Below, piece after piece: positions 569-2,440 of a DNA stretch of 31,901 nucleotides. This DNA is from a virus (Duplodnaviria > Heunggongvirae > Uroviricota > Caudoviricetes), in IMG/VR virus record IMGVR_UViG_2537561827_000016; one strand, given 5' to 3'. Both the position numbers and the translations under genes were made by a program. Each line of letters opens with the position of its first letter. Positions within the stretch are counted from its first letter, which is position 1. The notes below the pieces were generated by a model. That model was not told the origin of the DNA and did not search any database. It was given only the letters and a program-made list of their open reading frames with translations.

Positions 569-687
569 ATCAATTACTTACATGCAATCAAAAGTAAAAA
601 CAGTCACTTATCGAAAGCTGTAAGGGTTTGGAGTGGTTTCAAAATTTCTTGAGTGTGGACACTATGTGGACACTCAGAGGGGGAAAT

Positions 688-1668
688 TTATAACGTCACT
701 CCGCCTTTTAGTGGATTCAGAGCGACGGCATTTTGCAGGTAGTCAGGCGCAAGGTGCGCATAGGCCATCGTCTGCTGAATGCTCGCATGTCCCAGAATCT
801 GTTGCAGTGCGATTATATTGCCCCCATTCATCATGAAATGGCTTGCGAATGTATGCCGCAGGATGTGGGTTGCCTGATTGGGTGGTATATCAGGTTTCAC
901 TCTGCGTAAAATCCCGCAAAATTTCTCATAATCAACTTTGAATAATTTGGCGCTGGCCTCCTCTTTAACTTTTTTCTCCAGTTCCTCAGAAATCGGCACG
1001 GTTCGCTTTTTACCGTTTTTGGTTTTCAGGAAGGTAACCCTGCAATTTGTAATCTGTGCTGGTTTTAGCGTGGCAACTTCCGTCCATCTTCCTCCAGTGC
1101 TCAGACATAAAAGCGCGACAAGTAAGTCATCACCAGCCAAAACATTTAACAGTTTTGCGATTTCTGCTTTTTCCAGGAACGTCATTTCAGGGTTGGCCTC
1201 CGCCAGTGGCGGCAGTCCGTGAATTGGGGGTTGCCCGGAAAATTCATCCAATTGAATTAATTTTGTGAACATGCCGGATAATCGGTACATGTCACGGTTT
1301 ATCGTTGCGGCACTGATACCATCACGTAGTCGCATGGAACGATAATCCATCAAAGCCCTTTTGCTCATCCGGCTCACTGGTATATCACCTATGCCGCTGA
1401 TGGTTTTGAGTAGATGATTAAACTCTTTTGTTCCATGCTCGTGGTTTTGCCCGTGATATTTCCACCAGATGTCCAGCAACTCACTCAAAGTTCGGCGGTC
1501 TGCTCGCTGGCCTCCCCATTCTTTCTGACTGGCATTGGCGATTGTGTATCGCTCAAATGCTAGTGCTTCAGCTTTTCTTTCGAATTTCCTGCGGATGCGT
1601 TTTCCGTCGCGACCGCGAGGTCTAATGTCCACTTCATAGCGACCATCATCGAGCTTCTTAATTGCCAT
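688..1668 (-). CDS. int: Tyrosine-type integrase, P2/186 family
   Basis: N-terminus MAIKKLDDGRYEVDIRP matches P2 Int as recalled; C-terminal catalytic region has HxLRHT-like (ATHILRHTFASHFM) and terminal MAYAH tyrosine motif. ATG at 1668 preferred over the upstream alternative start; GAGGG RBS just upstream on the minus strand. Confidence 0.9.
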   Translation of the reverse strand: MAIKKLDDGRYEVDIRPRGRDGKRIRRKFERKAEALAFERYTIANASQKEWGGQRADRRTLSELLDIWWKYHGQNHEHGTKEFNHLLKTISGIGDIPVSRMSKRALMDYRSMRLRDGISAATINRDMYRLSGMFTKLIQLDEFSGQPPIHGLPPLAEANPEMTFLEKAEIAKLLNVLAGDDLLVALLCLSTGGRWTEVATLKPAQITNCRVTFLKTKNGKKRTVPISEELEKKVKEEASAKLFKVDYEKFCGILRRVKPDIPPNQATHILRHTFASHFMMNGGNIIALQQILGHASIQQTMAYAHLAPDYLQNAVALNPLKGGVTL

Positions 1669-1737
1669 AAGAAAGCCCTCCGGCGCTGTATTCACCATCT
1701 TGGTAGCAAATGGTGAAAATGTAATCTTTATATAGAG

Positions 1738-2031
1738 TTAGCCAATCCTTTTCGCGGAGTGGTTGGACTCTGTTGACTCTGGCCCAATGTGCGCGAGAGC
1801 CGGTGCGATTTGTCCTGCGTCCGGCGCGGTTTTATCTGTCATAAGCCATAGAGCATATTTTTGGAATGTGGGATGCATAGTGATTTTTAGCAAAGCTGTG
1901 CCACCGGGTTCAAAGTTTCCTCCTTCATATTTTTTAAGTGTGCTTAGCGGTAACTCTATGATTTCACAGAATTTTGATTGGCTTAGCCCTTCAGCCTCAC
2001 GCAAGGCCTTAATCTTTTCGCTTAATTTCAT
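1738..2031 (-). CDS. C: Immunity repressor, P2 C-like (HTH)
   Basis: 97 aa; the FQKYALWLMTDKTAPDAGQIAPALAH segment matches the P2 C repressor C-terminus as recalled. Divergent from cox, as in the P2 lysis-lysogeny switch. Confidence 0.85.
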   Translation of the reverse strand: MKLSEKIKALREAEGLSQSKFCEIIELPLSTLKKYEGGNFEPGGTALLKITMHPTFQKYALWLMTDKTAPDAGQIAPALAHIGPESTESNHSAKRIG

Positions 2032-2152
2032 TTGACATGGTGCCTATATAGGGACTAAATTCCCTCAAAACTGGAACCTATATAGGTTCCATTGATTTGA
2101 GAATAAACCAGCGTCTAAACGGTTTTGAGTGGTTTAGAAAGGGCTGGATCCT
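2032..2152. promoter_or_regulatory. C/cox divergent switch region with candidate Pe/Pc promoters and operator palindromes
   Basis: TTGACA at 2032-2037 with CTAAAT 17 bp downstream (candidate rightward Pe). CCTATATAGG at 2043-2052, and again at 2077-2086 inside a perfect 18-bp palindrome GGAACCTATATAGGTTCC (2073-2090). Confidence 0.5.
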
Positions 2153-2440
2153 ATGAGGGTACCATATATGGACGCTGAAAATTATGTGATTCAGTATCCG
2201 CTTGATGCGGTTCATGTGGATAAATTTGCTGATTTATTAGGGAAGCCAAAGACAGCCGTCAGTGAAATGGTGAAAGCAAATAAATTACCAATTATTGAAT
2301 TGCGTGATCCTTGCAAACCGAAGGCTCGTGCCGGTGAAAAATGGGTTTTCATTCCTGAGTTTAATCGCGCTGTACGTGAGGCGTTTTATAACCGACCGGT
2401 TGAACAGCGTGATGCATGGCTCTTGTGGATGGGGTTGTGA
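2153..2440 (+). CDS. cox: Cox-like excisionase / switch regulator
   Basis: Position and size (about 90 aa) match P2 Cox, with some similarity to it (LPIIELRDP, WLLWMGL end). An alternative start at ATG 2168 has better GAGGG RBS spacing. Confidence 0.75.
   Translation: MRVPYMDAENYVIQYPLDAVHVDKFADLLGKPKTAVSEMVKANKLPIIELRDPCKPKARAGEKWVFIPEFNRAVREAFYNRPVEQRDAWLLWMGL

Follow-up and report, generated by a model that had tools for sequence, protein, structure and literature searches.

Two copies of a self-complementary decamer in the C–cox switch of a P2-like prophage are, with a probability that we put at roughly 0.85, the operators O1 and O2 of the C immunity repressor in a distinct immunity class, and a symmetric repressor dimer may occupy each site. 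This reading is based on the context of the switch, positional homology with the mapped operators of phage WPhi, the residues expected to set the specificity of C, substitutions in lytic isolates, conservation among prophages, and an arrangement that chance does not readily produce. The feature itself is real. It is very likely functional, and its sequence suggests that it works in the manner of the WPhi and P2 C operators, without the non-palindromic half-sites that the literature treats as their hallmark.

The C–cox switch and its repeated elements

The window, i.e., the whole 31.9 kb stretch of DNA analyzed, is a P2-like prophage beside cpxP, in which int, C, cox, B, and A occur in P2 order; homologues of P2 orf78, B, and A are found downstream of cox. 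Integration has taken place directly downstream of cpxP, at the attachment locus of WPhi and L-413C; these two phages have a common attachment core, at an MG1655 coordinate adjoining cpxP (PMC3448106). The features of the switch and its surroundings are as follows, in window positions.

1-501: cpxP, which opens the window
688-1698, minus strand: int
1738-2031, minus strand: C immunity repressor gene, an open reading frame of 97 aa with a P2-type helix-turn-helix (HTH) (protein WP_000777029.1)
2032-2037, plus strand: Pe -35 hexamer TTGACA, which abuts the C start codon and is invariant across WPhi, P37, and ENT4 in the alignment
2038-2057, no strand: putative O1, the near-palindrome TGGTGCCTATATAGGGACTA (8/10 pairs) with its core at 2043-2052, between the Pe -35 and -10 and aligning with WPhi O1 TATTGGTGAC
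2056-2061, plus strand: candidate Pe -10 hexamer TAAATT (TTGACA-18-TAAATT, 10/12), aligning with WPhi TATATT; the alternative is CTAAAT at 2055-2060
2067-2070, plus strand: predicted Pe transcription start, ~7 nt past the -10, by homology with WPhi
2072-2091, no strand: putative O2, the perfect 20-bp palindrome TGGAACCTATATAGGTTCCA with its core at 2077-2086, at ~+4 to +24 of the predicted Pe transcript and aligning with WPhi O2
2149-2161, minus strand: predicted Pc start at ~2149 and a weak -10, TACCCT (2161 to 2156), by homology with WPhi
2168-2440, plus strand: cox, 90 aa (Pfam Phage_Cox, E=1e-23), with its start at 2168 rather than 2153 according to the RefSeq annotation of identical prophages

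The C protein aligns end to end with P2 C (PDB 2XCJ/2L49; E=1.9e-21), matches Pfam HTH_3, and by homology should be dimeric. It shares 55.7% identity with WPhi C, 43% with P2 C, and 100% with the C proteins of L-413C and R18C; judged by its sequence, it is a member of the L-413C-type immunity class of P2-like phages. The switch as a whole is 99.3–99.8% identical to those of Yersinia phage L-413C, Peduovirus P24B2, R18C, FSLSP004, and others, with 99.3% for L-413C, and is present at an identity of at least 99% in ~420 of 5,426 complete E. coli genomes (~8%), chromosomal in every case. Karlsson et al. reportedly recognized seven immunity classes in 2006, the L-413C genome is said to have been described by Garcia et al. 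in 2008, and the WPhi switch with its O1/O2 half-sites is said to have been described by Liu and Haggard-Ljungquist in 1999.

The decamer CCTATATAGG, which is its own reverse complement, occurs at 2043-2052 and 2077-2086, 34 bp apart from start to start, as the original prediction had it. Allowing up to one mismatch, these are its only two places in the 31.9 kb, with 0.31 expected. The second copy had been described as the center of a perfect 18-bp palindrome; while GGAACCTATATAGGTTCC is indeed present at 2073-2090, the full palindrome extends to 20 bp, TGGAACCTATATAGGTTCCA, whereas the next longest perfect one in the window has 14 bp. The first copy also lies within a 20-bp near-palindrome, TGGTGCCTATATAGGGACTA. 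Read from the outside in, the four arms are TGGTGCCTAT, TAGTCCCTAT, TGGAACCTAT, and TGGAACCTAT, which gives TGGwnCCTAT; the only arm that deviates from it shares bases with the -10 hexamer. Dinucleotide shuffling of the 121-bp spacer, repeated 20,000 times, yielded a direct repeat of at least 10 bp in 71 cases and a 20-bp palindrome in one. For the arm motif TGGNNCCTAT, the window has five occurrences compared to 0.51 expected.

Gene order and the promoter call bear out the claim that the elements sit in the C/cox switch and overlap Pe. Both hexamers originally assigned to this promoter are present, namely TTGACA at 2032-2037 and CTAAAT at 2055-2060. The former stands as the -35; for the -10, TAAATT is the better match with its 18-nt spacer, although CTAAAT may serve instead. 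Sequence variation touches both candidates: 2061 T>C, seen in 7 of 36 full-length prophage rows from an evenly spaced sample, removes the last T of TAAATT, and 2060 T>C in L-413C removes the last T of CTAAAT. Since each variant damages one candidate, the assignment of the Pe -10 is ambiguous. In WPhi, Pe starts upstream of O2 (PMC1904263).

A promoter scan returned no minus-strand promoter (Pc) in the switch, and its position is predicted by homology. In WPhi, 60 nt separate O2 from the Pc start, and the transcripts from the two promoters share an overlap of 82 nt (PMC1904263); a CTGGATC...AGGGTA block is conserved in the MAFFT alignment that includes WPhi. With a Pc start near 2149, the C mRNA would run through O2 and O1, and such passage could allow autoregulation. 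A fourth TGGNNCCTAT arm, TGGATCCTAT, faces GGTACCA in a weak dyad at 2145-2164, 73 bp from the center of O2, where Pc is predicted to start and cox has its ribosome-binding site. We considered this dyad (arms TGGATCC...GGTACCA) as a third C site and rejected it; because WPhi and P37, which are heteroimmune, have kept the block, a C-specific role is improbable, and the block probably belongs to Pc or to the ribosome-binding site of cox.

Comparison with mapped operators and a candidate mode of repression

By 2007, operators had been located in P2, P2 Hy dis, and WPhi only (PMC1904268). P2 has two 8-bp direct repeats, 22 bp center to center, that flank the Pe -10, and P2 Hy dis has two 8-bp repeats, 26 bp center to center, that flank the -35 (PMC1904268). 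WPhi has two 10-bp half-sites, TATTGGTGAC, 34 bp center to center and flanking the Pe -10 (PMC1904268); mutagenesis, EMSA, and reporter assays show that its C protein represses via both of them (PMC1904268, PMC1904263). Repression persists when one half-site is mutated and is abolished when both are (PMC1904268). For the operators of the present switch, we found no mapping in the literature searched, and an earlier description is possible. A full-text search for CCTATATAGG returned unrelated papers only, and on palindromic operators of P2-like phages the literature search yielded only the P2 C structure paper (PMC2995052).

The original prediction proposed a comparison with known operators, and here the decamers match the half-site geometry of WPhi O1 and O2. 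When the window is set against the WPhi Pe sequence as printed, TTGACAGTAACCTATTGGTGACTTATATTCCCGTCAAAAGGTTGTGTATTGGTGAC (PMC1904263), with the -35, -10, and start region as references, the decamers fall on O1 and O2 both by eye and by MAFFT, with equal size, spacing, and position. Both 2038-2057 and 2072-2091 lie in the C–cox spacer and overlap Pe, as P2-type operators do, and the decamers likewise form paired repeats within the 8–10 bp and 22–34 bp ranges around a -10 or -35. Phage 186 offers no such match. Its type of switch has a two-domain CI of ~190 aa, distal operators, and a CII-dependent promoter. The repressor here is a 97-aa P2-type C, and neither the decamer with up to one mismatch nor an arm motif scan revealed any 186-style distal operator or further full operator-like site in the window.

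P2-type C repressors have been described as binders of non-palindromic direct repeats (PMC2995052), and the original prediction held that a palindromic operator departs from this description. The symmetry is real and stronger than had been claimed (O2 is perfect and O1 pairs at 8/10), and the half-sites are in this respect not of the non-palindromic type. The contrast was nevertheless overstated, as the same elements also form a 10-bp direct repeat with WPhi geometry. A mode of repressor binding different from that at direct repeats is plausible from the sequence.

WPhi is similar in several respects: the repressors belong to the same family, the prophages use the same att site in the cpxP region (PMC3448106), two 10-bp repeats are 34 bp apart center to center with one between the -35 and -10 and the other just past the Pe start, and escape appears to need the loss of both sites. 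However, the half-site sequences are unrelated (CCTATATAGG here and TATTGGTGAC in WPhi), the WPhi sequence pairs at only 7/10 and 5/10 at the same centers, and the present class is known from sequence. The P2 switch is similar in its face-to-face Pe and Pc, its C and Cox proteins, its repeats flanking the Pe -10, and the homology of C over its full length. In contrast, the P2 repeats (GTTTAGAT-type) are non-palindromic, span 8 bp, and are 22 bp or two helical turns apart (PDB 2XCJ; PMC2995052), and P2 C cannot bind a single half-site (PMC2995052). The repressors also differ in four of the five residues proposed to contact bases, i.e., Y31, T33, S35, Y36, and R41 in P2 C (PMC2995052) and L29, T31, K33, K34, and N39 at the corresponding positions of the window C. 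These differences fit a distinct operator sequence and immunity specificity.

Two more distant systems provide precedents for a symmetric site. The lambdoid HTH repressors 434 cI and P22 c2 use dyad-symmetric sites of 14–20 bp that suit a symmetric HTH dimer, and the dimer of P2 C can be superimposed on P22 c2, the recognition helices being 26 Å apart in both (PMC2995052). Unlike lambdoid switches, the present one has no tripartite OR/OL array, the sites of C are apparently not used by Cox, and C is a one-domain protein of 97 aa without a RecA-cleavable domain. C.Esp1396I, which has a fold similar to that of P2 C, binds two repeated palindromic sites, one HTH dimer each, and the dimers assemble into a tetramer (PMC2995052); unlike C, this protein is a restriction-modification controller, and its sites are 15 bp apart center to center rather than 34 bp.

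The model that we favor is that C bound at O1 and O2 would bracket the -10 and the start of Pe and so repress this promoter. With Pe blocked, cox and the replication genes would stay off, maintaining lysogeny and superinfection immunity, and escape from repression would require the loss of both sites. Given that P2 C is a symmetric dimer with the helix spacing of palindrome-binding P22 c2 (PMC2995052), we infer one dimer per 20-bp dyad (arms TGGwnCCTAT), and one symmetric C dimer on each palindrome is plausible. The recognition helix would read roughly positions -8 to -4 of each arm (GGnnCC), and two dimers 34 bp apart would act together; as 34 bp corresponds to 3.2 helical turns, they would not lie on exactly the same face. 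Such symmetric binding is not a requirement across the family, since a deletion of 6 or 10 nt immediately upstream of WPhi O2, in the place of the left arm, leaves in vivo repression unimpaired (PMC1904263). A 20-bp operator with perfect symmetry should be well suited to a co-structure of C with DNA, which would test recognition by a symmetric C dimer, a question that dates from the P2 C structure (PMC2995052).

Dyad symmetry may extend beyond this immunity class. Palindromes are present in the O2 zone of 569R5 (AAAGATAACC-TTTT-GGTTATCTTT), the Klebsiella element CP052639 (TTGGTTCAT-GCTA-ATGAACCAA), and ENT4 (GGTCACGAATTTGTGAC); all three lie at Pe +35 to +60, with one arm of each repeated at the O1 position. 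The two best near-palindromes of WPhi, P37, and the window fall at the positions of O1 and O2. In a set of 12 other switch regions, from classes several of which are related to one another, the summed dyad score of the O1 and O2 zones was 145 compared to 118 ± 4.5 in shuffles, a value reached by none of 3,000. P2 itself shows little dyad symmetry. These sequence comparisons suggest that other classes, too, commonly have dyad symmetry where O1 and O2 lie. It is a more tentative proposal, and one that we consider somewhat doubtful, that P2-type C repressors in general read dyad-symmetric operators of 16–24 bp with one symmetric dimer each, the so-called direct repeats being the arm shared by O1 and O2. 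On this proposal, the direct-repeat description would capture the shared arm only because the other arm of O1 is constrained by promoter hexamers, and the class in the window, with its perfect 20-bp O2, would be the clean case. If true, the direct-repeat picture of the P2-type C family would need revising; the WPhi deletions argue against any strict requirement for symmetry.

Natural variation in lytic isolates and prophages

An 86-bp query covering Pe and the operators (2020-2105) retrieved ten distinct phages of this type. The segment was identical in eight of them and differed only in L-413C and R18C. L-413C carries 2043 C>A in O1, 2089 C>A in O2, and 2060 T>C in the -10 region, which we call mutations relative to the population consensus rather than to the parental L-413 sequence. 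R18C carries 2051 G>T (O1 +4) and 2077 C>T (O2 -5), and these are its sole differences in 386 bp. Each phage therefore has one substitution per operator, together with a C protein identical to that of the window. All four substitutions hit positions conserved in 4/4 arms (±5, ±4, ±8, and ±5), and the one at +8 indicates that the outer TGG matters, beyond the decamer. That two independent lytic isolates carry one change per site mirrors the need to lose both half-sites in WPhi.

R18C is labelled virulent or lytic, a label given without a lysogeny or immunity test in its paper (PMC6823313). Its divergence from the window is 2.2% over 5.9 kb, compared to four differences in 851 bp locally (99.5% identity). 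L-413C also has a P51L substitution in Cox (C>T at window 2319, cox codon 51). HQ103, a Yersinia phage of the same type isolated on Y. pestis, has intact operators and a 7-bp deletion that shifts the reading frame of C after residue 53, with its C gene at 601-894 of the compared stretch (window 1738-2031). From its sequence, HQ103 looks like a c-type clear mutant, unlike the operator changes of L-413C and R18C.

Identification of O1 and O2 would offer a simple molecular explanation for the lytic growth of the plague-diagnostic phage L-413C, and of R18C, despite an intact repressor gene. It would also indicate how two substitutions could turn common P2-like prophages into obligately lytic derivatives for use in diagnostics or therapy.

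Among E. coli prophages, both elements are largely invariant. Positions 2031-2060 are perfect in 407 of 420 genomes and 2067-2096 in 415 of ~421. Of the two variants sampled, one has 2035 A>G, within the -35, and the other 2038 T>C, at the outermost position of O1; neither touches the core, and both retain an intact O2. Both 20-mers are identical in 34 of 36 IMG/VR contigs; one of the other two has both R18C substitutions and appears to be R18C itself, and the second has a change at O2 +10 alone. By a rough estimate, the chance of a random genome having both 20-mers hit is of the order of 1e-4. Site conservation alone says little, because the whole switch is conserved at 99% or more.

Chance, RNA structure, and Cox as other explanations

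TATA-like runs, which are self-complementary, often occur near -10 elements, so that a repeat and a palindrome might arise without any function of their own in an AT-rich promoter region. We consider the probability of such an accident to be negligible given the shuffle frequencies, the excess of the TGGNNCCTAT arm, the positional homology with WPhi operators that have been mapped, and the paired mutations in lytic isolates. Another reading is that the O2 palindrome functions mainly in RNA, as a 5′ stem-loop of the Pe leader that stabilizes the early transcript or as a terminator or attenuator, with the match of the O1 decamer being secondary. The first ~30 nt of the predicted Pe transcript (window 2066-2110) form a stable hairpin, with a leader folding energy of -11.5 to -13.1 kcal/mol (z = -3.0 to -3.5), and a terminator scan flags 2072-2091 followed by TTGATTTGAG. 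The leaders of the heteroimmune phages WPhi, P37, and ENT4 likewise open with hairpins, of different stem sequence; SW5 is the exception, with a hairpin no better than shuffles (z = -0.1). Yet this explanation accounts neither for an identical O1 decamer upstream of the Pe start nor for paired O1 and O2 mutations in lytic isolates, and the hairpin withstands 2077 C>T of R18C, which only changes a C-G pair to U-G. For a terminator, the T-run is weak, and a position at +24 in an essential early operon is implausible even though the hairpin is stable; no Rfam family matched in 1600-2700. A primarily RNA-based function is accordingly very unlikely in our view, and a supplementary RNA role for O2 is unlikely to a much lesser degree; the Pe-leader hairpin may be a conserved 5′ leader structure.

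The original prediction had also allowed that the elements might be bound by Cox, which acts as lytic repressor and excisionase, instead of by C. They lie within the switch region, and P2 Cox filaments can reach from Pc towards Pe at high concentration (PMC3936717). Cox must also bind att, however, and CCTATATAGG, with up to one mismatch, has no relative there or anywhere else in the window. The P2 cox-boxes are 9-bp TTAAA(G/C)NC(A/C) sequences in at least six copies with 10–11 bp spacing (PMC3936717), whereas the decamers match no box and occur as two copies 34 bp apart; they are thus not the series of 9-bp boxes at Pc and att that characterizes a Cox-binding region. The DNA of cox is ~88% identical to that of phages with a WPhi-class C, whereas the decamers vary with the class of C, and loss of a Cox site would not render a phage lytic. 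We consider Cox binding at the palindromes exceedingly unlikely and retain the assignment of both elements to C, particularly as Cox-box-like motifs are found elsewhere, at the following positions.

627-644, plus strand: Cox-box-like TTTGGAGTGGTTTCAAAA, beside Int arm-type sites at the att junction, matching 2123-2140 at 15/18 positions
2103-2140, no strand: candidate Cox-binding region, with TAAAC at 2104-2108 and 2116-2120, an inverted copy within GTTTAGA at 2132-2138, and an 18-bp box at 2123-2140

The candidate region near Pc contains the inverted repeat TCTAAAC/GTTTAGA and resembles the P2 cox-box TTAAA(G/C)NC(A/C) (consensus from PMC3936717). Its 18-bp box at 2123-2140 is TTTTGAGTGGTTTAGAAA, and the sequence GAGTGGTTT is found exactly only at 2127-2135 and 631-639. 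The box shared by 627-644 and 2123-2140 is, on this similarity, a good candidate for the Cox recognition element in phages of this type. Close to its copy at the att junction are two Int arm-type sites, TGTGGACA, at 654-661 and 665-672; the Int arm-site consensus is tgTGGaCa (PMC3448106).
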